The notes: generated from the letters alone by a model not told the origin. DNA of 64,000 bases from Candidatus Poribacteria bacterium (GCA_965222225.1 CBDCTK010000002.1:3968001-4032000), one strand, 5' to 3'. Shown: positions 1,838-58,964, numbered from the stretch's first letter. Numbers and translations are program-made.

Positions 1838-1905
1838 CTCCGAATCGCGACTCCGAACAATCATGATAACACGGGCCTCGCGCCGATCTTAGGAAGGATT
1901 GTGAA

Positions 1906-1978
1906 TGGAGCAGACGGGATTCGAACCCGTGACCTCATCCGTGCGAGGGATGCGCTCTCCCATCTGAGCTACGGCCCC
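1906..1978 (-). tRNA. tRNA-Ala(CGC), duplicate copy with one acceptor-stem mismatch
   Basis: GGGGCCGTAGCTCAG...CATCC CT CGC AC GGATG...GGTTCGAATCC...CTGCTCCA. G3:U70 is present; C6 mismatches U67. Confidence 0.85.
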
Positions 1979-2091
1979 ATATGGCGGTGCTTCTTGAACG
2001 AAGTTCGAACGACCTATGAGCGAAGTCCGCTGGACTTCGCGCACTGATTCGCTGCGCCATCCTCGCTTCGGGGCGGAAATTTTTCGCGGTA

Positions 2092-4705
2092 CTATTCAAT
2101 CACTATATCCAAACCAGAAAACTCATCAAGCTCGCGGGATACAGCAAGCCTAACTTCATTGGCTTTCTTGTATCGTTCTGCTATTTGCCTTTGGGCTACC
2201 ATATCAAAATTACCATCGTTGTCGACTGGAATTGATATTGTTATTTTCTTTATGTCGTTAATCCTCAGGTTATTATTTGCGCTATATCCCATATTCCCGA
2301 TTTCTTTTTCAATAATATTAAGCATTGTCTGCAAAAACTCATCATCTAAATTTTTCCTAAATTCTTCCTTCAAAGAAAATTTGGCAATCCTTTGGTTTAA
2401 ATAAAATTTCCCCTCATCCCTCCACTTAGTTAGCCTGAAAAACGAACCGGATAGAGGGAGTAAATAATCACCCTTCGTTACACGGAATTTATCGTTAATC
2501 TCAATATTCTTTGGATAACGCACCAATTTTGGATTTTTCCCCGATAAGTTTTGAATCCGTATTATGGGGATATCTGATTCCTTTGCCGTGAACAGACTCT
2601 TTTTGAAAGTGAAACCAGAGACTACATCAAAAATTTCATCAATGGTTTTCTCTTTATACGAAAAGTCCTTTTTTCTATCAATAAGGTCTGCGACCTCCTC
2701 TCTGTATTCAAAAATACGATCAGCTACATCTTCTAATAGCTGGGGGAAATTATCGATGGCAATAGTTTTCTGTTCTTCCAGAATACCGAGTTTAATTTTT
2801 TCTTCCTCGCTCCACCATTTATCTACCAGCCAATCTTTTTCAATGCCGCTGATGAATTTTTCAATTGGTAGAACTTTACATCGATCATCAGAATTTATGT
2901 TCTCAAAACGGTTCTTATTTGCTCTAAAGAAGGAAAATAACGTTACTGCTTCCTGAAGGTCGTTTTGCTCACTACTGAATCTGTAAATATCCCGCGTTTC
3001 ACCTATTTCACTGACCAAGTATGTAAATACAGGTTCTTTTTGCTGTTCTGGTTTCAACTTTTTGGTGATACCAAGAATGTACGTCTTTTTGGAGGTTGTA
3101 AAGAATGTGTCTTTTGGCAGTGAAATTATTGCATCAATAAAACACTCGTCTAAAATGAAGCGCCTTAAATTTTTGTCATTTTGTCGATTAAGAATCCCAT
3201 CTGGAACTATCACAAAAGCTTTGCCCCCGGGCTTGAGAGCTCTAACGACCCATTCCATAAATAAGCCTTCAACACCCATGGCGTTTATTTTGTAATAGTT
3301 TACAAGTTTGCCATCCTTTTTAATTTCTTCTTTTAAGTTACTACTTCCCTTGGTGACATAAGGCGGATTTGTCAAAATTAACTCGTATCCATTTTCTACT
3401 GGATCTGATAGCGACCCTAGAATGGAATTTGTTTTCAGCATAAAAGTTTTGTTGAATAGCTCTGAGAATTCCTTAGTAAGTCCGGGATTTTCCTTTATTA
3501 AGTCTGAAAAATAGATGAGCATATTAGCCTTTGCCAATATGATTGTCTTTTGCTCATCTCTATCGAATCCCTTATCAAAACCTTCGATTGTAATCTGAGG
3601 GTGTATTCCTTTCTTATCAATCTTATAGAGTTCATCAAGTCTCGTAGCGAGCGGTTCTAGAAGGAATTTCCCGACGCCACAAGCAGGGTCGCAGATTTTT
3701 TTGCCCTTCTCAATTTCACTTTTTGCCATCTCCACGATGGCACGGACCACTTTTAGAGGTGTGAAAAATTGCCCCCAATTTTTCTTAACTAATGCTCTCC
3801 TTGAGAAAACTCTCAAAAAGTTTGCTCTTAAAATCGAGGTCGATGTGTTCAAGTTTTTCGTATTTAATAAACTTTTCTAAAACAGTTTTAAATGTTGTGC
3901 TATAACCCTTTACTGCTTTTTGATCTTTACTGACAAAAATTGTCCCGTTAATAATTGTTGTCTTGTCAACTGGATTTTCTGGAAATAAATCTTTGATTTT
4001 CTTTCTCACAGTATCCGCGTAATGCTCTAAAACTTCATTTTCTGTATTTTGATTGTACATTTCTGCAAGTGTATAGAAATTATGCGTTCCCTTGAGTACA
4101 CCTAGATCGCTCAGGTATTTGAATATAAAAAGCTCAACAAAAGTATACAAACAATTTTCAGGCGTCGCTCCACTGACTGACCAAATATCCTGCCAAATAC
4201 TTTTGGCTAAATCGGTTGGGTTAATAAGTTGCTTTGGTTTTATATTATCATTAAGTTCATTGATTGAATCGTATATTTTTTCAAGTAAATCAATGACTTC
4301 TTCTGATTTTGGATCGAATGGTGTTCGGATCTCATTCCCAGCCCAGTCCTTTACTCTATTTTCTGTGGCAGGATTCACCCAAACTCCATCTTTAGTATCG
4401 GTGGCAATGAATATTCTGGCTCCGAGTTTTCGTGCAACTTCGATCTCTTGCTTGACCGCTTGTTGTTTTTGGACGTTTGTTCTAAAGTCAGACGGCTTTT
4501 TATATTCAATAACTGCGATGATGTTTTTCCTTTGTGCTATCAAGGCATCTATTTTCTTTTTTTCAACTTCTCCATAATCAACGTTGCGAATAATTCCGTA
4601 TTCTTTGAGAGATTTGACGGACGTAGCACCTATATTATAAAAATCCCACTTGCCGATTTTATCCGGGCTTTTTACAAGATTCCGTTGTAATAATTCTTCA
4701 CTCAT
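2092..4705 (-). pseudogene. Fused restriction-modification protein (type IIG-like: PD-(D/E)xK nuclease, N6-adenine MTase, TRD) split by a +1 frameshift near 3787
   Basis: IDAL..VIEYKK, GQFFTP, DPACGVGKFL, NPPY and a C-terminal HsdS-like TRD. Removing one T at AGT-T-AAG joins ESIS to KKNWGQFFTP. Visibly AT-rich relative to the flanks. Confidence 0.8.
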
Positions 4706-4881
4706 ATAATTTTCGGCTAATAGTTTATCCACAGTGGCTCCAAAAACTTTTGTAATAAGCCTTAGAGTGACCACGGTAGATTTTCTGTTGCGCTGTTCTA
4801 TAAAGTGGTCCCATTGTCTAGACCATACCGGATTGTATTGAAGGGACCGTTATGCAAATAGGCGAGAAACCGGGGACGGGG

Positions 4882-5244
4882 TTATGAGGAAGCGTTTTGC
4901 AGCGCTTCCACTTTTTCCCGCAGTTGTTGAATTTCGGCTCTGATTTCCTTCCAGTCTCTTTCCTTATAGGCAATAACGATTTGGGGGATTGCTACGGCGG
5001 CGGCTATTAGACCAATGAGCGCAATCTGCAGGAGTTGTAAATCGCCAATTCTGTTATTCAGGTTTTTTTCCGCAGCGTCAATTCTAGTATTCACAGCGTC
5101 AATTTTAAGATCGATATACTCCCTCGTGCGCTTCTCGAACGCTGCGATTTCTTCTTGGATTACAGCTCGCAGATCCGCCTTCGTCAATTCAGCAAAGGCT
5201 GGTGATGTCAGAAGCAGTAGGGACAGGATTGTTATGCACTTCAT
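4882..5244 (-). CDS. Hypothetical protein (signal peptide, coiled coil, one TM helix)
   Basis: MKCITILSLLLLTSPAFAEL... with TM segment LLQIALIGLIAAAVAIPQIVIAY. Confidence 0.7.
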   Translation of the reverse strand: MKCITILSLLLLTSPAFAELTKADLRAVIQEEIAAFEKRTREYIDLKIDAVNTRIDAAEKNLNNRIGDLQLLQIALIGLIAAAVAIPQIVIAYKERDWKEIRAEIQQLREKVEALQNASS

Positions 5245-5375
5245 GATTGGATCTTCTTTCTTCTGTTTCGACCAAACACGCCGTATTGTCGGGAATCGCA
5301 ACTCACTTCGGTACGACCAATCCTGCACCGTCGCGATAATTCGAGCCTCGCGCCGATCTTAGGAAGGATTGTGAA

Positions 5376-5448
5376 TGGAGCAGACGGGATTCGAACCCGT
5401 GACCTCATCCGTGCGAGGGATGCGCTCTCCCATCTGAGCTACTGCCCC
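5376..5448 (-). tRNA. tRNA-Ala(CGC)
   Basis: Cloverleaf with acceptor GGGGCAG/CTGCTCC, G3:U70 and anticodon CGC. Confidence 0.95.
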
Positions 5449-5528
5449 ATATGGCGGTGAATTACCAATCTTTGCTCGAACCCATTCTGAACGAAACAAC
5501 TGACGCTGCGCGCTGACTTTTGCTTGTT

Positions 5529-5795
5529 TCAACGGTGAGGGCAACCGGGCCAACAACAAGGTCGCCGCTTTCCCTCTATTAGCTCCGTGCGTACTCGCTC
5601 AATATGACATCTTCTCGTCTCCGGCTTCTTGACGGCTGTAACCCAGCAAATCCATTCATTACGCGCGAGTGATGTAAGGTCATTCCACGCGTCTCGCACC
5701 GCGTTCGCAGAAATAAGGGCCTCGCGTAAATCCGCTGGCACTCTATGTACCACGCCAGTGGCGATTCCTTTTTTGGTCATAAGATTATTAGACAT
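5529..5795 (-). CDS. YdeI/OmpD-associated family protein
   Basis: VPADLREAL...WNDLTSLARNEWICWV..VKKPETRRCHI...GKRRPCCWPGC. Confidence 0.8.
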   Translation of the reverse strand: MSNNLMTKKGIATGVVHRVPADLREALISANAVRDAWNDLTSLARNEWICWVTAVKKPETRRCHIERVRTELIEGKRRPCCWPGCPHR

Positions 5796-6168
5796 CCTTC
5801 CAAAATAATCTCGGACCCCGATGGCGTCTGCCTTTGCTCTAATTGGCTTGGGAATAATGCCAATCGTCAGAACTCCGATGCCACCTGAATTTTGTCCATT
5901 ACATTGAGTTTATTATGACAAATGTCTATTCTTTTAGCGAATAGACCACTAACAAACCCAAAACTTAATAACATTAAAAGTCCATTATGATTAAAATGAG
6001 AAAAATCTCGCTTTTGGCTAAAAGAAAGTTCGAGCCGATATTTTTTCAGGTTCTTTGGCAGTTTTTAGAAACGGCAGGTCGACTGGCGGTGGCAGGCGCG
6101 CGAAAATTGCATCCGCCGCCTTCAAAATCAGTTCGAATTTTGTCGAATGCACACCGCCAGTTCGGAAA

Positions 6169-6258
6169 TGGCGGAGAGAGTGGGATTCGAACCCACGGTG
6201 CAGTTGCCCGCACAACAGTTTTCGAGACTGTCCAGTTCAACCACTCCTGCATCTCTCC
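6169..6258 (-). tRNA. tRNA-Ser(CGA)
   Basis: GGAGAGA...ACAGT CT CGA AA ACTGT, long variable arm, ends GCCA. Confidence 0.95.
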
Positions 6259-6264
6259 GCAGGT

Positions 6265-6711
6265 TCAACGACGCTCATGGAAGAAGGATTGAAGCAGAGC
6301 ACGACTTTCCTCGTCCAACACGCCTTTAACGACATTCACTCTGTGATTTAACCGCTTGTCTTGTAATATATCAAATATGGTGCCTGCAGCGCCGAACTTC
6401 GGCTCCGAAGCCGCGTAAACGACCCGCGGGATTCGCGCCAAGACAATCGCTCCGGCGCACATTGGGCAGGGTTCCAAGGTGACATATAACGTCGTATCCG
6501 TTAGCCGCCAATCCCCAACGCACCGCGACGCTGACCGAATGGCAAGCACTTCCGCGTGTGCCGTCGCATCCTCCGACTGTTGGCGTAAGTTATGCGAACG
6601 GGAAAGAACAACGCCCTCTCTGACGATTACGGCTCCAACGGGAACCTCGCCCATTTTGGATGCTTGCCGCGCAAGTTCAAGGGCTTCACGCATCCAGAAC
6701 TCATCTGACAT
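6265..6711 (-). CDS. tadA: tRNA adenosine(34) deaminase
   Basis: MSDEFWMREAL..GEVPVGAV..HAE..TLEPCPMCAGA. Confidence 0.93.
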   Translation of the reverse strand: MSDEFWMREALELARQASKMGEVPVGAVIVREGVVLSRSHNLRQQSEDATAHAEVLAIRSASRCVGDWRLTDTTLYVTLEPCPMCAGAIVLARIPRVVYAASEPKFGAAGTIFDILQDKRLNHRVNVVKGVLDEESRALLQSFFHERR

Positions 6712-6840
6712 ACTCAAACGCGAAGTTAAGTGTAGGCAACTGTCCCTATGATGCGGCGTTAGCCTACCTGTAGTAGGCATACTCCGTATGCCGTAACCCT
6801 TGTGCAGACTACGGCGCCGCGGAGTCTACCTACTGCGCTA

Positions 6841-6914
6841 AGCGCCTGAGAGGATTCGAACCTCCGGCCTTCTGATCCGTAGTCAGATGCTCTAATCCAC
6901 TGAGCTACAGGCGC
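6841..6914 (-). tRNA. tRNA-Arg(ACG)
   Basis: GCGCCTGTAGCTCAG...TCTGA CT ACG GA TCAGA...GGTTCGAATCC; CCA not encoded. Confidence 0.95.
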
Positions 6915-6920
6915 AACTAA

Positions 6921-7009
6921 TGGCGGAGAGGATGGGATTCGAACCCATGGTACCACTGAGGCACAACTGCTTAGCAGGCAGCCCGATTCAACCGCTCTCG
7001 CACCTCTCC
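6921..7009 (-). tRNA. tRNA-Ser(GCT)
   Basis: GGAGAGG...CTGC CT GCT AA GCAG, long variable arm, ends GCCA. Confidence 0.95.
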
Positions 7010-7026
7010 ACACGTGTTCCAAACAT

Positions 7027-7114
7027 TGGCGGTGGGAGTAGGATTCGAACCCACGGTACCTTGCGGCACAACGGTTTTCAAGACCGCCGCTTTCGACCAC
7101 TCAGCCATCCCACC
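7027..7114 (-). tRNA. tRNA-Ser(TGA)
   Basis: GGTGGGA...CGGT CT TGA AA ACCG, long variable arm, ends GCCA. Confidence 0.95.
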
Positions 7115-51981: not shown

Positions 51982-54689
51982 ATGCACAAAATGATTAGAT
52001 TCACACGTTTCCACGCATTATGCGTCGCCTTAACATTGCTCGTCAACGCCGCCGCCGCACAGGTTGTTACTATTCCCGACCCTAACTTAGAACAGCTTGT
52101 CAGAGAAACACTTCGACTTCCGAACAACGTTCAAATTGAGCGTGGGCACATGCTCCAGCTACGCGACCTTGATGCTGGAGGTAACCGAGAAATTCTAAAT
52201 ATCACGGGACTAGAATACGCCACCAACATCGTAAGTCTGAACCTCTATGACAACCCTATCGAAGATATTAGCCCTTTGGCTAATATGACCAAGATGACAG
52301 GTTTCAACTTGTGGGGGTGTCGCATTGTTGATTTGAGTCCACTCCGTAACTTGATGAATCTGAGTTGGATTGTATTAGGGAGTAACCAAATCTCCAACCT
52401 CAGTCCGCTGTCTGAACTAACGAATCTCACTTATCTGAATCTCTCATTGAACCAAATTTCTGACATCAGCCCCCTTGCAAACCTTGTTAACCTTCAGGAA
52501 CTCTTGATAGACCAAAATTCGGTTGAAGATATTACAATACTCGCAAATTTGACACAACTTACTCGCTTGCGCTCGGACACAAATCAGATTCACGACATCA
52601 GTCCCCTTGCCAATCTCACCCGGTTAGAAGAATTGTGGCTCAATAGAAATGCGATTACAAATCTCGCCCCACTGACTGGATTGAACAACTTACAGAAACT
52701 TTACATTGCTGACAACCCCTTCCACGACTTTAGTCCCCTTTTTGAACTTGAAGGGGTAGAACTGGACATTGAAATAGATGAGGGATTCAACCTCGTCGTC
52801 GAAATGCCCGAACCGAACTTAAGACTGTTGATGCGAGAAACGCTGTCTCTCCCTGAAGTGGTGCCTCTTACACAAGGACAGATGCTACGATTGACAGGAC
52901 TGGACGCCGGTGGGGACCGTGGAATCACCGACCTAACGGGACTGGAATACGCAACCAACCTCCAATCTCTCGCGCTTTACCACAATCCAATCGTAGATAT
53001 TAGTCCTTTAGCCCATCTTGCAAAATTGGAAGGATTACATCTCTGGGGGTGCCGCATTGTTGATTTGAGTCCACTCCGTAACTTGAAGAATCTGAGATGG
53101 ATTGTCTTAGGGAATAACCAAATCTTGGACATCAGTCCATTGGCTGAATTAATCAATCTTACCGATTTGCGCCTAGATAGCAACCAAATTGTCGACTTCA
53201 GTCCCCTTGCCAATCTCGTTAACCTTGAGACGCTATGGATACAGGCAAACCCGGACGATGACTTTTCAGCATTGGATAGGTTGAGTCTAACCGATTTCCG
53301 ATACGACCAAGTATGCGATATTCCACCTCTATTTCCGCTGGAGGAGCGTCTGAACAATCGCAGCTATCCCTCTATCGTTCGCGCCTGGGATGATGTTGTC
53401 GGACAGGATCGCCTCTCTCCCATAGAAAGGGGCATGTTGCACGATCTCTGGTTCAATCCGGCCCCTCACTTTGAGATACAATGGGATATAACCCCGACTG
53501 CGCTAACGCCAGGACTGTCTACTCAACTGGCAGGAGTGCCGGGCGTGTCTTATGACCTAAGGCGAAGCGCCCAGCAGTTGAATCCGGACACCATAGTTCT
53601 CGCCGATATTCACATTCTTAGCCTATTACCGGAAGAAGAGTTCCCTCCTGATTCGCGCTTCTGGCTTAGAGACAGCAATGGAGAGATTGCAAAGAGGCTA
53701 GACTCTGACGGTAACCTTTATCCCATGGTCGATATTTTCGAACCCGAAGTCCAGAATCTCTTCGTAAACCGGATTCTTGCCATTGAACGCTGTGGGGTGT
53801 TTGATGGTGTGTTTCTAGATGAATTTTTCCACCATGGGACAGCCTTTGCGGGAAGACACTTATACGACGCGAGTGACGAGGAACTTATCCAAGTATGGAT
53901 GAATATACTTAAAGCTGTTCGGGCCCAAGCTCGTGATGATTTTCTCATACTGATGAATGTTAACGAGACTAAACCGACGCGGGTCGCCGAATACGTTAAT
54001 GGCGTGCTCACGGAATCCTTCAGAGACCATCCGGGCGGGTACAGCCGCGAATGGATTATGACACATGAAGATACGCTCTCGTGGGCTGAGAATAATCTCA
54101 GAGAACCTCACATAAACTGTCTATACGGCGCGGGAATGAGCATAGAGCCACCCGATGGCCCGAACAACCTACGCTGGATGCGGATGTTCACAACCTTGAG
54201 CCTAACTCATTCCAATGGCTACGTAATATACACCGATGGTCAAAGAGGCGATCCCTCTGCAGACGCTCCATTTGGTACTCACCACGCACACCTATGGTAT
54301 GACTTCTGGAACGCCGACATTGGTCAGCCAGTAGGTCCGAAAGCCCAGCTCCATGAGAATACGGAAGGTCTATTCATTCGTGAGTTCACAACGGGCTGGA
54401 CAGTGTATAATCGGAGCGGTAAGTCTCACGTTGTCACATTACCTGAGCGCGTGCAATCTGTACGAAGTGGTGTCCAAAACACCCAGCACGCTGTTCCCGC
54501 CTTGACGGCGACATCTACCTCCGCGTAGCGCCGGTTAACCCTGCAGATATAAACGGTGACGGTGTTATGAACATCCTAGACTTAGTTCTCGTGGCAAATG
54601 CGTTTGGCACCGACGCGCACGATGTCAACGGTGACGGCGTTACTAATATCCTAGACTTGGTCATAGTAGCACAAGCCATTAACCAGTAA
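51982..54689 (+). CDS. Internalin-like LRR, putative glycoside-hydrolase barrel and dockerin; 1-bp frameshift near 54501
   Basis: 22-aa LRRs and FDGVFLD. The shifted frame gives LDGDIYL..DINGDGVMNILDLV..DVNGDGVTNILDLV, with the stop at 54689. Confidence 0.82.
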
Positions 54690-54788: not shown

Positions 54789-55538
54789 ATGTTAACGCCG
54801 CAGCAACTAACACATTACCATGAACAGGGCTTCGTGATTCCGGATTTTCGCTTGCCCGCCTCAACCATACAGTCAATCAAGGACGACTTTGAGCGGTTGC
54901 TGATGCGGTACCCCGAGTTCCGGCAAAATTGCCCGTCTCTGCTCACCTACGACACGACCTTCCTGAATTACGCGAGGAACCCGGACATCCTTGACATGGT
55001 GACCCAAATTCTCGGAGAAGATATAGCCGTTTGGAATTCCAGCTATTTTGGCAAACCTGCACATGATGGGAAAAGGGTGCCTTGGCATCAAGATGGACGC
55101 TACTGGCCCATTAGCCCTCTCGCAAGTTGCTCCGTATGGATTGCGATTGACGATTCCAACACCGAGAACGGTTGCCTGCGGATTATCCCCGGTTCGCACA
55201 AATCGCGGAAATTATTCAGGCACGAAAGCAACCCCAGCGACGACCTCGTTCTTTCGCTTGAACTCCTGCGATCCGAATTTGACGAAAGCACCGCTGTGGA
55301 CATTGCCTTGGAATCGGGACAGGTTTCGCTCCACGATGTCTATTTGGTGCACGGTTCGGAACCCAACACCTCCGGTAAATCCCGCCGCGGCATGACGCTG
55401 CGCTTTTTTCCCACCACCTCCGTTTACGAGCGCGACATTGAGGGAGGAGTGCAGCCGCGATCGCTGTTCCTAATGCGGGGCACGGATCGGTCAAAACGAA
55501 ATGACTTCGTGGTGAAACCGTTGCCCGCACCCCAGTAA
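54789..55538 (+). CDS. Phytanoyl-CoA dioxygenase (PhyH) family protein
   Basis: WHQD, NGCLRIIPGSH, HGS..N.S..RR. Confidence 0.92.
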   Translation: MLTPQQLTHYHEQGFVIPDFRLPASTIQSIKDDFERLLMRYPEFRQNCPSLLTYDTTFLNYARNPDILDMVTQILGEDIAVWNSSYFGKPAHDGKRVPWHQDGRYWPISPLASCSVWIAIDDSNTENGCLRIIPGSHKSRKLFRHESNPSDDLVLSLELLRSEFDESTAVDIALESGQVSLHDVYLVHGSEPNTSGKSRRGMTLRFFPTTSVYERDIEGGVQPRSLFLMRGTDRSKRNDFVVKPLPAPQ

Positions 55539-55748
55539 ACCGCCAAACCAGAAGATAAGTGCATTTGTAGGGTGGGATCGAAAGAGCGAATAGCGATAAG
55601 GATTTTCTATCGCCCTCCCTATTTGGTCGGTTGATCGATTGAGATCTTCAGGTGTATTGCACCAGCGAGTTACCAATATCAGAAACCGCCGCCAAGGTCG
55701 TAGGCATACTCCGTATGCCGTAACCCTAGTGTGGATTGGGAAGGTGGG

Positions 55749-56447
55749 TCAAAACGCCGTGGACATCGCGATTCCGAACCGCTCAAGCCAGATGTACATG
55801 AGACTAACGCCGTGCTGTCTACGAAAATAGTTGAACATCAGGTGCGACCGATCTCCGTCATACATCCCGCGAGCGGAGAACCCTCTGCCAAAATCAACCG
55901 TGGCGCCGAAAGGATAATTGAATCCGTCATCCCATTCGGAATAGTTCACGGTCGCATATAACGACAGCGGAAGGCGCGGCAAGCGCTTGGCAAGCGTGAA
56001 AAAGTAGGCTTGAGTCCCAGCGGGTGAGCCGATGCGGTCCGAGCTTGTTCCGATGAAGAGGGCAGGTCGGGTATCCGTTTCCGTAAGGAGGAATGCGTTG
56101 AAGAGCGGAGAGATTTCCGATGCCGCGGGGTTATATTCAAGACCAAGTTGACCCCTGCTTAGGAACTGATAATTCAACGTCATCCGCCAGCGCGGACGAT
56201 CTTTCTCCGTGTCGACATAACGCCAAGAAATCGCCCATGTGGTCTGAATACCGCTTCCCCGAAGCGGTGCGCCTTCGCCAGGTCAGGCGCTTCAGGTAGG
56301 AGTCATGGAAGTCTGGGGGGCGGTCTTTAGCGGCTTGAGTTGGAGATTCGCTTCGTTTGACCAGCTATCAGCCGCCGCGGTCAAGAACAAATATAATACT
56401 AGACTCCCAATAAGCGTATGTGTCAGTGTTGCTCCAAAACGTGTCAT
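55749..56447 (-). CDS. Candidate selenoprotein (U52-S-A-U55), secreted or outer-membrane beta-barrel-like
   Basis: One frame from ATG 56447 (signal peptide) through ACC TGA AGC GCC TGA CCT into the 56183 ORF; 232 aa ending in Phe; SECIS-like hairpin downstream of the TGAs. Confidence 0.7.
56250..56268 (-). promoter_or_regulatory. Putative bacterial SECIS hairpin
   Basis: mRNA ACCGCUUC-GGG-GAAGCGGU; first loop G lies at +23 after the second UGA. Confidence 0.6.
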
Positions 56448-57103
56448 GGTTGATGAATGGGGAAATGATGGACAGGAGGCAGGTCATCCTGTTTTAATTG
56501 GTTGATGGGATAAGTAGCAGTCAGTGGGTTGCTATCGGATTCCGTTTCCATGTGAATTATAGTTAGAGCCTAATAGAATAACAGTGACTAAGCCAAATTT
56601 GTCATCAGAGTTGCTGCATACCGTACAAGCGAAGAGCAACACCGTATCACCCGTGTCAAGCTCACTCGTGCCTACAAGTCGTATATATTCTAATGCTACT
56701 GCGCCTGGTTACTTTCTTATTTGGCGTTTAAAGAATCGCTGTACCCGCGACAACCTGAAATGTCGCTCCGCTGGAGCGAAACATCTTTAGGTATGTTATA
56801 CTTCTGTAGTTAAGTGTTGGTCTGTCTTGTACTGCAGCGAAGTGGTATGTTAGGCTGCCGTAGCCATGTGAGGATTTGACTAACCACTTCTTCCTACCAC
56901 CAAACAGTTGCGTAGAATGTCTATATCGTTTTTAGTTGGTCAATCCCTGCGTCTGTGTACATCGTAATATTCTTTTATGGGTAGATGGTTAATTAGGTAT
57001 GGGGCTAGCGGATGTGTTTGATTTTGAGGAAATAGAGGATAATGTCCCAAGTGCAAAGAAACTACAAATCGCCGTATGCCGGTATTGGCTTAGTGGGCTA
57101 TGG

Positions 57104-57685
57104 TTAAAAAGGAATATCATCATGTGTTTCTTTCGTGTATGATAATTCCAAAAGCGCCCCTTTAAGTCGCTGTAAAGTATTCAATACGTCACTGGCGCTT
57201 TCAATTACAGTGTAGGTATTTTGGATATCGACGCGTTGCCGTCTAACTTCATTCATAATCAATGCGACGGAATCACCAAACCGGTCTAATTGATTTAAGT
57301 GTTCTTCGGATTGTCTCTTGGTGAACATAAATCTCCTTGTATCTATACTATCCGTACCGGGGTAATTTGGAAGATACGTCAATTGCTCAATGTAATCCTT
57401 GTCTTGCTGCCACAGACGCTGCTCCCACTCGTCGTCCCAATACTGCTCGGAATAGTCCTGATAATAGTCCTCTATGATAGAATAGGTAATATCGTCATCA
57501 AAATACTGCTCCCAGTGGTCGTCATACTCGCCAAGAAGTTCTTGTGTATGTTGGTGCAAAAAGTCTTCATAATCCTCGTCGTCCGGATTCGAAATTTCGT
57601 CAATGTAGTTCATCAGGAGGACTTTCGTGGAGTGATCACTAGCGATACCGTATAATGAATCGTCTCCGTTCGCATTTAATGCCAT
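57104..57685 (-). CDS. Acidic hypothetical protein ending DDIPF
   Basis: Asp/Glu/Tyr-rich ORF with an SSB-like C-terminal tip. Confidence 0.6.
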   Translation of the reverse strand: MALNANGDDSLYGIASDHSTKVLLMNYIDEISNPDDEDYEDFLHQHTQELLGEYDDHWEQYFDDDITYSIIEDYYQDYSEQYWDDEWEQRLWQQDKDYIEQLTYLPNYPGTDSIDTRRFMFTKRQSEEHLNQLDRFGDSVALIMNEVRRQRVDIQNTYTVIESASDVLNTLQRLKGALLELSYTKETHDDIPF

Positions 57686-57731
57686 CTTAATTGGCGGTGC
57701 AACCATGCGAGAAATAGATTTCAATCTTCCC

Positions 57732-58721
57732 TCAGGCGCAGGCGGGACTGTCTACCGTCCATCGGTTGAAAGTCGGATTTTCACTCACGGCGAGTTTGCT
57801 GCGGGCGTCATACCACATATTCGCCCACTCAATCGGATCGTGTAATTCGCTCCCCGGGTTGGATCTGCTGCGAGCGACGAAGCCCGGAAATGCGCCGCGC
57901 CCCGTTGGTTGACCTATTGGATTATAACGAAGGTCAAAACTCCAACGAATATTGTCGCTCTTGTTTGGCAGCGAAGAGTGGCAGTTCAGGCGATTGAAAA
58001 GCAGCACCGATCCGCGCTTCATGGGAAGCGGAACGCTATCCGCCGATCGTAGGTATTTGTCCGGAATGTGGAGACCGAATCCTCTCGAAATTTCCTTGTG
58101 CGCGTGACAGTGTTGGAGCAATCCCTCGCGATGGCTCCTCGGAATAACCTCTAAACAGCCGTTCTCAATCGTAGCCTCCCACAGACAGAACCACACCGTC
58201 AACATATTGGTCTCATCGGCTTCGGGCGTGACAACGCCGGTGTCTTGATGCCACGGGGTCGCACCTAGCTGAACGTTCCCGGTCTCCTCGTTAATGGGGC
58301 ATAAATGCTCCGGCGGTTTGAGCCGCACATGCTGCACCGGATTGGAGTAGATTTCCGGTCCAATCAACGACTCGACGGCATCGAGGAGTTTCTCGTTTCG
58401 CAGCATCCTGAAAACCGCGGGACCCACCCACATCGGCGTATCCGTCTGCACGTTCCGCTGCGGCAGCGAAAAGTCGAAATATTGTGCGTGCACCTTGCCG
58501 GATTCGGCGTAAATCTTGGTCAGTCGATCGCCAAACGGCAGGTCGTCATAGGTGGAGGAGACTTCACCCTTTTCCTCTAATTCGAGGGCGAGTCGATCCA
58601 ATACGGTCGCGTATTCCTCAATGACCGGATCAATATCTTGCTCGGGGTCAAACAAATCTTCCACGACCAAGTACCCCTGTTCCTCAAAGTGCGCCACTTG
58701 GGATGCGGTAAGATGTGCCAT
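57732..58721 (-). CDS. PhyH family dioxygenase
   Basis: TPWHQD, NGCLEVIPRSH, HSSLPNKSDNIRWSFDLRY. Confidence 0.92.
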   Translation of the reverse strand: MAHLTASQVAHFEEQGYLVVEDLFDPEQDIDPVIEEYATVLDRLALELEEKGEVSSTYDDLPFGDRLTKIYAESGKVHAQYFDFSLPQRNVQTDTPMWVGPAVFRMLRNEKLLDAVESLIGPEIYSNPVQHVRLKPPEHLCPINEETGNVQLGATPWHQDTGVVTPEADETNMLTVWFCLWEATIENGCLEVIPRSHREGLLQHCHAHKEISRGFGLHIPDKYLRSADSVPLPMKRGSVLLFNRLNCHSSLPNKSDNIRWSFDLRYNPIGQPTGRGAFPGFVARSRSNPGSELHDPIEWANMWYDARSKLAVSENPTFNRWTVDSPACA

Positions 58722-58964
58722 TTTTCCTTCTTCCTTTGCGTGAATCGCGTGCAATGGTTCCGAATAACGCGAGTTTGAATTCGCCTACACAACAGATGAA
58801 CACGGGGAGGCATGACTTTCACATCTGTCGAATATAAACGTAATGAGCGGTTTCTTGTTACGCTGTACTATCACGCCCCGATCTCCACCTGTGTCCCGTT
58901 CTAGCCCACTGAAAAATTCTTACCTAGAAATCACATTATCCTCTGTCCTTCTAACTCCATATTA

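Follow-up and report, generated by a model that had tools for sequence, protein, structure and literature searches.

In a 64,000-nucleotide stretch of DNA from Candidatus Poribacteria bacterium (GCA_965222225.1, CBDCTK010000002.1:3968001-4032000; the whole stretch is hereafter called the window), the minus strand at 55749-56447 encodes, with a probability of roughly 85%, one secreted outer-membrane β-barrel protein of 232 residues with two selenocysteines (Sec, U), both UGA codons being served by one selenocysteine insertion sequence (SECIS) hairpin. Judged by computation, from the reading frame, the pairing of Sec with Cys in relatives, the covariation of the hairpin and its confinement to genes with UGA, the genome's Sec machinery and the predicted fold, selenocysteine is almost certainly inserted. 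The protein represents a new selenoprotein family within a known mechanism. Its precursor would comprise, in this order, a signal peptide, a short arm with Sec52-x-x-Sec55 and a 12-stranded outer-membrane barrel; both UGAs would be read by SelB with Sec-tRNA(Sec), and a single mRNA hairpin, with a stem of 7-8 bp and a G-K-G triloop, would direct both decodings.

Reading frame and conservation of the UGA pair

The minus-strand frame was translated from ATG 56447 to the stop TGA 55751-55749, with TGA 56294-56292 and TGA 56285-56283 as the sole interruptions. The read-through product has 232 residues ahead of the terminal TGA stop, and the UGAs stand at residues 52 and 55 in the local sequence T-U-S-A-U-P-G. 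An earlier note, made from the sequence of the window, had described this hidden frame broken solely by two TGAs, a CxxC-like spacing between them, a signal-like N-terminus and a terminal Phe, and all of these were seen in the translation. The features of the gene are:

55749-56447, minus strand: full coding sequence through two UGAs (translation; same in-frame architecture in 80/80 related loci)
56367-56447, minus strand: signal peptide, approximately residues 1-27 (charged-then-hydrophobic N-terminus by eye; helix at residues 8-26 of the model; divergent in-frame counterpart in homologs)
56292-56294, minus strand: first UGA, putative selenocysteine 52 (TGA invariant in 81/81 loci; aligned with Cys of CxxC relatives; locus L139 has TGA here only)
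56283-56285, minus strand: second UGA, putative selenocysteine 55 (TGA invariant in 81/81 loci; aligned with Cys of CxxC relatives; hairpin loop at index 25)
56181-56183, minus strand: internal ATG (Met89), the start taken by gene callers (open reading frame list; homologs mostly cut near here)
55752-56240, minus strand: predicted 12-stranded outer-membrane β-barrel domain, residues 70-232, ending in Phe (AlphaFold2, VIA-align, Foldseek)

The open reading frame (ORF) list splits this gene into a 51-residue ORF and a 144-residue ORF from ATG 56183. A search of a large protein collection returned 252 relatives, 120 of them listed; 116 of these 120 are 130-173 amino acids long and cut at about the start of the window's short ORF. 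A product starting at Met89 would be without the signal peptide and without the first strand (residues 71-78) of the AlphaFold2 model. The ATG of Met89 is an internal codon, and the true gene is longer than gene callers report.

A scan with one genome per species found 183 relatives, and all locus counts rest on the best 80 of these 183. The 80 loci come from at least 8 phyla, including Ca. Poribacteria, Latescibacterota, Gemmatimonadota, Acidobacteriota, Eisenbacteria, Calditrichia, Planctomycetota and Krumholzibacteriia. In the window and in 80/80 related loci, TGA-N6-TGA is followed by PGEG codons, a divergent yet recognisable signal peptide lies upstream in the same frame, and signal peptide, motif and barrel share one frame. 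The possibility that homologs begin downstream of the TGAs, named beforehand as a way for the proposal to fail, was therefore not borne out (in-frame signal peptide upstream in 81/81 loci). Within the phylum Poribacteria a match was obtained in 39/176 genomes, and each of the 35 matches spanning the motif has exactly two TGAs. This arrangement of the TGA pair is far beyond chance.

Codon entropies, calculated on 79 sequences, are zero at each of the three positions in both TGA codons; in the flanking codons on both sides the entropies of the first and second positions (H1, H2) are near 0 and that of the third (H3) is 0.7-1.9 bits. Such coding-like entropies on both sides support one reading frame across the TGAs. 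At the two places neither TGG, nor another stop, nor a Cys codon was found in any UxxU locus (0/81). To end the same gene, 33 of the 81 loci use TGA, 32 TAA and 16 TAG, so that TGA is an ordinary stop in these organisms and not a sense codon.

An exhaustive profile-free search gave 167 hits and reached a distant subfamily, 27-28% identical, that reads P-T-C-A-G-C-A-G-E at the aligned place, with Cys at both positions in 7 representative proteins. When metagenomes were scanned with this CxxC subfamily, 10 loci were obtained, nine with TGY/TGY and one (L139) with TGA/TGT, i.e. UxxC. By their alignment, the CxxC relatives and the UGA gene form a classical Sec/Cys pair, the pairing looked for in a bacterial selenoprotein; it was found from the distant subfamily only. 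Four long database proteins (201-233 residues), encoded on contigs no longer than 1868 nt, have W in the two positions. Two of the four could be checked, and in longer genome contigs (L109, L113) the DNA matching them reads TGA in each position; the W residues probably stem from a gene call with genetic code table 4 on short contigs. The database protein P0131 reads C-x-x-W, and a CxxU form there is only a guess. The expectation of C or U at both positions thus held: CxxC in the distant homologs, TGA in 81/81 loci, and W not borne out in the DNA matching the two proteins that could be checked.

The stretch is contained in eleven RNA-library runs from three studies. Contigs from two of the studies span 55700-56477 unbroken and keep both TGAs, the one difference beside the motif (56298) being silent, and a contig from the third covers 55717-56286; parts of the gene without contig cover carry no meaning. 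Since the region past 56477 differs in the contigs, these come from a related strain.

The shared hairpin and the selenocysteine machinery

Two stem structures follow the UGAs:

56250-56268, minus strand: putative SECIS hairpin, 8 bp here (core of 7 bp, 56267-56251), GGG triloop (inside the A-P-L-R-G-S-G codons; RNAalifold, covariation)
56269-56290, minus strand: second stem, 6 bp (56290-56285 pairs with 56274-56269; present here, not conserved)

The second UGA precedes the hairpin by 15 nt and the first by 24 nt; counted from the second TGA, base 23 is the first G of the loop. The 8-bp hairpin (56268-56250, first loop G at +23) is as the earlier note had seen it. RNAalifold on 71 sequences returned a 7-bp stem with a 3-nt loop within the P-L-R-G-S-G codons. 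The pairs are formed in 91.7% of cells, and the covariation score is 0.239 vs 0.139 for shuffles, with 0/500 shuffles reaching it; six controls in which the pairing partner was slid scored 0.01-0.12, all below the hairpin. Conservation of the hairpin, on which the earlier proposal had been made to depend, is thus accompanied by covariation. Two pairs join third codon positions, which are silent sites, and both covary: the first is GC in 47, GU in 11, AU in 9, CG in 1 and other in 3 sequences, and the second CG in 39, UA in 28, UG in 2, GC in 1 and other in 1. In L125 the peptide is altered to P-V-G-G-A-G, and 6/7 pairs are still kept.

Counted in register, 75/80 UxxU loci have 7/7 pairs and 5/80 have 6/7, with a GGG loop in 66 and a GTG loop in 14. 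The hairpin with its G-K-G triloop was found in 81/81 UGA-bearing loci and was absent from 9/9 CxxC loci, which have 3-5 of the 7 pairs and no G-K-G loop. The UxxC locus L139 has 7/7 pairs and a GTG loop, its register being exactly that of the UxxU family. The hairpin therefore follows the UGA rather than the protein family, and it accounts for the freezing of the peptide PGEGAPLRGSG in the Sec forms alone.

The bacterial SECIS model given in the Fig. [quoted passage not shown] The values of the hairpin were compared with these published parameters, and for both UGAs they lie within them as stated in that legend: GGG loop, stem of 7-8 bp, spacing of 22/31 nt and MFE of −9.1 to −10.8 kcal/mol, the value for 56250-56268 being −10.8 kcal/mol.

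From 21 candidates of a genome-wide hairpin scan, selD and two AhpC/TSA genes (Pfam-confirmed across the TGA) were taken as comparators. The SECIS of selD has an 8-bp stem and a GGG triloop at loop index 20, counted from the U of the UGA, and the loops of both AhpC/TSA genes, which read U-P-F-C, stand at index 24. In the barrel gene the loop index is 25 from the U of the second UGA and 34 from that of the first, so that the second UGA is typically placed relative to the loop and the first unusually far from it.

The second stem (GCGCCT/AGGCGC), which the earlier note had set beside the hairpin, is present in the window and did not hold up as a conserved element. Its pairs form in 69.2% of cells, no pair is changed on both sides and 500/500 shuffles score as high; the stem is a local accident.

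The Sec machinery, whose presence had been proposed as a check, is complete in the genome: selA, selB, tRNA-Sec (selC) and selD were all found over their cut-offs, the first three contiguous at C2:1590238-1593758. ARAGORN reported one tRNA-Sec and one ordinary tRNA-Cys. A second Sec-like tRNA or tRNA(ReC) was not found in the genome by ARAGORN, which may miss unusual tRNAs, or with Rfam RF01852; several lower-scoring RF01852 hits, checked against the ARAGORN list, are ordinary tRNAs such as Ser and Leu. Among five genomes of other phyla that carry the barrel gene, selB was over the cut-off in four, while in the fifth the hit is partial and lies where a contig ends. Within the phylum selA was over the cut-off in 163/176 genomes and the barrel gene present in 39/176; with selA near-universal, its co-occurrence with the barrel gene is uninformative.

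Further selenoprotein and tRNA genes were observed along the way. The selD gene (C2:2933348-2934274) is itself a selenoprotein gene, with an in-frame TGA in E-C-A-G-U and its own SECIS. The two AhpC/TSA-family genes (TGA at C2 5528875 and 512176; L149, L150) have U-P-F-C at the active site; one has a C-terminal extension of approximately 200 residues, the other an N-terminal CarboxypepD_reg domain, and standard gene calling would truncate or split both. A 97-nt 'tRNA-Tyr' with anticodon ATA, reported by ARAGORN at C2:4416735-4416831 (L151:136-232), is unusual in length and anticodon and was not hit by RF01852; either a peculiar tRNA with a long arm or a false call could explain it. In the window itself, a tRNA cluster lies on the minus strand at 1905-7114 (C2:3969905-3975114), with two tRNA-Ala(cgc) separated by 3.4 kb and followed by Ser(cga), Arg(acg), Ser(gct) and Ser(tga).

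Predicted fold and alternative readings

AlphaFold2, run with a 59-row alignment, gave a model with a predicted local distance difference test (pLDDT) value of 85.1 and a predicted template modelling (pTM) score of 0.74. Residues 8-26 form a helix (signal peptide), and residues 70-232 were modelled at pLDDT >90; they comprise 12 long strands, within 71-231, and a further strand of 3 residues. VIA-align gave Z 16.3 to the COG4313 channel 4rl8, 16.1 to FapF 5o65, 15.8 to KdgM 4pr7 and 13.5-14.5 to autotransporter barrels; Foldseek matched FapF and KdgM/NanC porins. In the ESM Atlas, with a CxxC relative as query, solely clusters named 'outer membrane protein with beta-barrel domain' and hypothetical clusters were returned. 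A signal peptide (by eye), a closed 12-strand barrel (in the model) and a terminal Phe, as looked for in an outer-membrane barrel, were all found, and the protein is predicted to be a 12-stranded outer-membrane barrel. The suggestion of a β-barrel-like, non-thioredoxin envelope protein is supported by AlphaFold2, VIA-align and Foldseek.

Fold matches to the solved barrels 4rl8 (COG4313), 5o65 (FapF), 4pr7 and 2wjr (KdgM/NanC) and to autotransporters have Z 13.6-16.3 and a root-mean-square deviation of 2.4-2.9 Å over 148-166 residues. Like the window protein, these barrels have a terminal aromatic residue and an N-terminal segment ahead of the barrel, the best alignments beginning at model residues 44-54. 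However, identity is 4-12% and none has a Cys/Sec pair on its N-terminal segment; a shared fold does not give function. For the read-through protein (P0001) no family was found in Pfam or NCBIfam (release 20.0) at E up to 1, so that membership by sequence in KdgM, FapF or COG4313 was not seen, nor a hit to DUF3570, the name that one source gives to the homolog P0121. No SelL-type thioredoxin fold around UxxU was found: the sole confident domain is the barrel, and there was no thioredoxin Pfam hit for the protein, the arm not having been searched separately.

In the available text of PMC13188914 and PMC9312934, bacterial UxxU families are a Prx-like thiol:disulfide oxidoreductase (PF00578), a metal-binding 'putative mercuric reductase' (NF041115) and an FmdB family (TIGR02605). 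Like the barrel protein, these have two Sec in place of a CxxC pair, a presumed metal or redox role and a SECIS within the coding sequence. The barrel protein shows no sequence relation to them (no NCBIfam or Pfam hit at E up to 1), and NF041115 and the other NCBIfam selenoprotein models matched neither P0001 at E up to 1 nor the CxxC relatives P0156 and P0157. It also differs in its place in the outer membrane, with a membrane-barrel fold in contrast to their thioredoxin, HMA or zinc-ribbon folds, and in having no Cys form inside the UxxU clade (0/81). UxxU variants of the large subunits of Group 4 [NiFeSe] hydrogenases are described in the text available for PMC13582414. There too the UGAs are nine bases apart with one predicted downstream SECIS, UxxC, CxxU and CxxC relatives exist, and the same question arises whether one SECIS serves both codons. 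According to that text, however, the hydrogenase is a cytoplasmic Ni-binding enzyme and many such genomes have tRNA(ReC)-like genes, of which none was found in this genome. With three bacterial families and the hydrogenases listed in these sources, UxxU is not confined to the SelL family, where the earlier note had placed it. In the family tables of two reviews (2022, 2026), as far as accessible, UxxU is given for three families other than this one, and a small barrel family of such a type does not appear. In the accessible literature on bacterial UxxU, outer-membrane or Poribacteria selenoproteins no description of the family was found, and the source lists of the reviews or the supplements of PMC13582414 could hold it under another name.

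Three other accounts of the two codons were weighed. If the TGAs were true stops, two products would result, a 51-residue secreted peptide and a 144-residue protein from ATG 56183; these are exactly the two ORFs of the ORF list, and the short form is the one called in 116/120 listed database homologs. Such a short product, however, would be a barrel without signal peptide and first strand, the segment from the second TGA to Met89 shows protein-level conservation (H1 and H2 approximately 0, third positions free) and in the window holds no in-frame ATG, GTG or TTG, and the start sites chosen by gene callers vary between lineages. With the upstream ORF in the same frame in 81/81 loci and neither TGA ever swapped for another stop, this account is extremely improbable. 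Reading of the UGAs as Trp (near-cognate read-through, code-4-like), or as Cys by a SECIS-dependent tRNA(ReC), is very improbable: it would fit the four long database proteins with W, and the text available for PMC13582414 reports tRNA(ReC)-like genes enriched with UxxU hydrogenases, so that one or both UGAs might be read otherwise. Yet the W proteins lie on contigs of at most 1868 nt and the DNA of two of them has TGA, which points to a table-4 call; TGG, though one mutation away, occurs in 0/81 loci, TGA terminates the same gene in 33/81, the homologs have Cys and not Trp, and by ARAGORN and RF01852 the genome has one tRNA-Sec and no second Sec-like tRNA.

It is also improbable that only the second UGA is efficiently decoded as Sec, the first being leaky or regulatory, a selenium-dependent brake on synthesis. 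The spacing of the second UGA is like that in other selenoprotein genes of this genome (index 25 vs 20-24), that of the first is 34; but the first UGA is as invariant as the second and aligns with a conserved Cys, L139 keeps TGA solely at the first position, its hairpin being in identical register, and the spacings of 22 and 31 nt are both inside the 16-37 nt range stated in the legend cited from PMC13188914.

Several points weigh against decoding of both UGAs as selenocysteine in one barrel protein. The evidence for selenium insertion is indirect, coming from sequence and models. The RNA-library contigs are uninformative on strand, transcript ends, expression level and translation, and DNA may occur in such libraries. 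Cys forms are confined to the distant subfamily (27-28% identical), and their absence from the UxxU clade is uncommon among selenoproteins. The distance between the loop and the first UGA exceeds that in the comparators by 9-14 nt (index 34 vs 20, 24 and 24), and decoding at this distance is backed by one natural UxxC locus (L139) and by the breadth of the published model; recoding twice in succession should be inefficient. The arm that holds the motif (approximately residues 28-69) was modelled at pLDDT 51-69, with 51-67 around the motif, too low to place it relative to the barrel.

Partner gene, surroundings and implications

At 44/80 loci the barrel gene is followed on its strand by a gene whose product combines a signal peptide, a YHS domain and a TlpA/ResA-like thioredoxin domain (WATWCxPC). 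The gap to this gene, measured at 39 loci, is mostly 2-64 nt and at five of them 236-369 nt. By our own tally, among loci outside the Poribacteria type with downstream DNA of at least 1 kb, the partner is present in 44/47; at L080, L102 and L124 none was found by motif search. No YHS-TlpA gene was found downstream at any of the 29 Poribacteria-type loci with 1.5 kb of downstream DNA. The partner stays below every NCBIfam cut-off (best 89.3 bits vs a cut-off of 170). The CxxC-type relatives have 1-3 YHS domains fused N-terminal to the motif, and a thioredoxin-like gene lies directly downstream in 5/6 CxxC-type loci with long flanks. YHS is a presumed metal-binding domain. Through both fusion and adjacency, the Cys/Sec pair is linked with YHS as well as with a periplasmic reductase.

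A quick tree was calculated from the barrel columns with the motif removed, its root not being established. It has 46 UxxU rows on one side of a branch (Shimodaira-Hasegawa-like approximate likelihood ratio test, SH-aLRT, 95), among them a clade of 13 Poribacteria-type rows (support 95) nested among partner-bearing lineages, and the CxxC rows as a separate group (support 100) with the UxxC locus L139 inside. With the CxxC group as outgroup, the simplest readings are that the partner was lost in Poribacteria and that Sec was gained separately in L139, as the position of this locus suggests. L139:2629-3561, on a metagenome contig, is a UxxC member inside the CxxC-type subfamily, and its downstream ORF is without Pfam hit.

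The two selenols may, at somewhat less than an even chance, be a binding or redox site for a thiophilic metal, e.g. copper, at the periplasmic mouth or in the barrel lumen, with a YHS-TlpA thioredoxin as co-worker in most lineages and the linked partner lost in the Poribacteria type, including this one. The selenol pair would form a thiophilic-metal site or a redox-gated site; the earlier note had suggested a diselenide or a metal-binding N-terminal arm. TlpA/ResA reductases and YHS (PF04945) are the known systems nearest to the conserved partner found elsewhere, with its signal peptide, YHS and WATWCxPC thioredoxin domain; this make-up suggests a reductase acting on a metal-handling Cys/Sec pair, and TlpA-ScoI-CoxB is reportedly a copper-site system. 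Unlike these systems, and as a point against the proposed function, the genome of the window, which is 94.9% complete, gave 0 hits to PF04945 (YHS) and has no linked thioredoxin. The YHS-TlpA protein of L084, searched against this genome, matched generic thioredoxin domains only, in unlinked TlpA-like genes. A partner in this genome was considered and rejected; the lone TGA in the best match is the stop codon of that gene.

Neighbouring genes differ between Poribacteria genera. In the window the barrel gene is flanked by PhyH-type dioxygenase-like genes at 54789-55538 (plus strand) and 57732-58754 (minus strand), the PhyH family having been confirmed for the homologous neighbour in a relative only (L111:431-1417). 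A very acidic protein of 206 residues is encoded at 57104-57724 (minus strand). An 848-residue secreted protein with two leucine-rich repeat blocks (by eye) is encoded at 51982-54528 (plus strand); after it comes a short ORF that contains a dockerin-like D-x-N-x-D-G repeat. Just 3' of the barrel gene lie two short dispersed repeats, 55600-55640 (approximately 52 genome copies) and 55700-55727 (approximately 14 copies; blastn-short), both found in RNA-library contigs with many different flanks and high summed depth; a 7-bp hairpin between them may be the terminator of the gene.

In public annotation the family is cut to a headless fragment of 130-173 residues or given Trp at both places, and through these errors at least eight phyla have both their selenoproteome and their outer-membrane proteome under-counted. 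As no close Cys form was found in the UxxU clade (0/81), the family is a good case for what Sec does that Cys cannot, and two UGAs sharing one covarying hairpin, together with a UxxC relative in the same register, offer a clean system for the reach of SelB. It is doubtful, though conceivable, that this is the first outer-membrane channel with an obligate Sec pair as its gate or binding site, with selenium as a cofactor required to move a chalcophile metal (copper or similar) across the outer membrane, natural proof of one SECIS programming two UGAs nine bases apart and a Poribacteria-type barrel working without the YHS-thioredoxin partner. The YHS/TlpA link points to an envelope pathway, so far undescribed, for a thiophilic metal and, if this is true, selenium supply would be coupled to metal handling in these bacteria.

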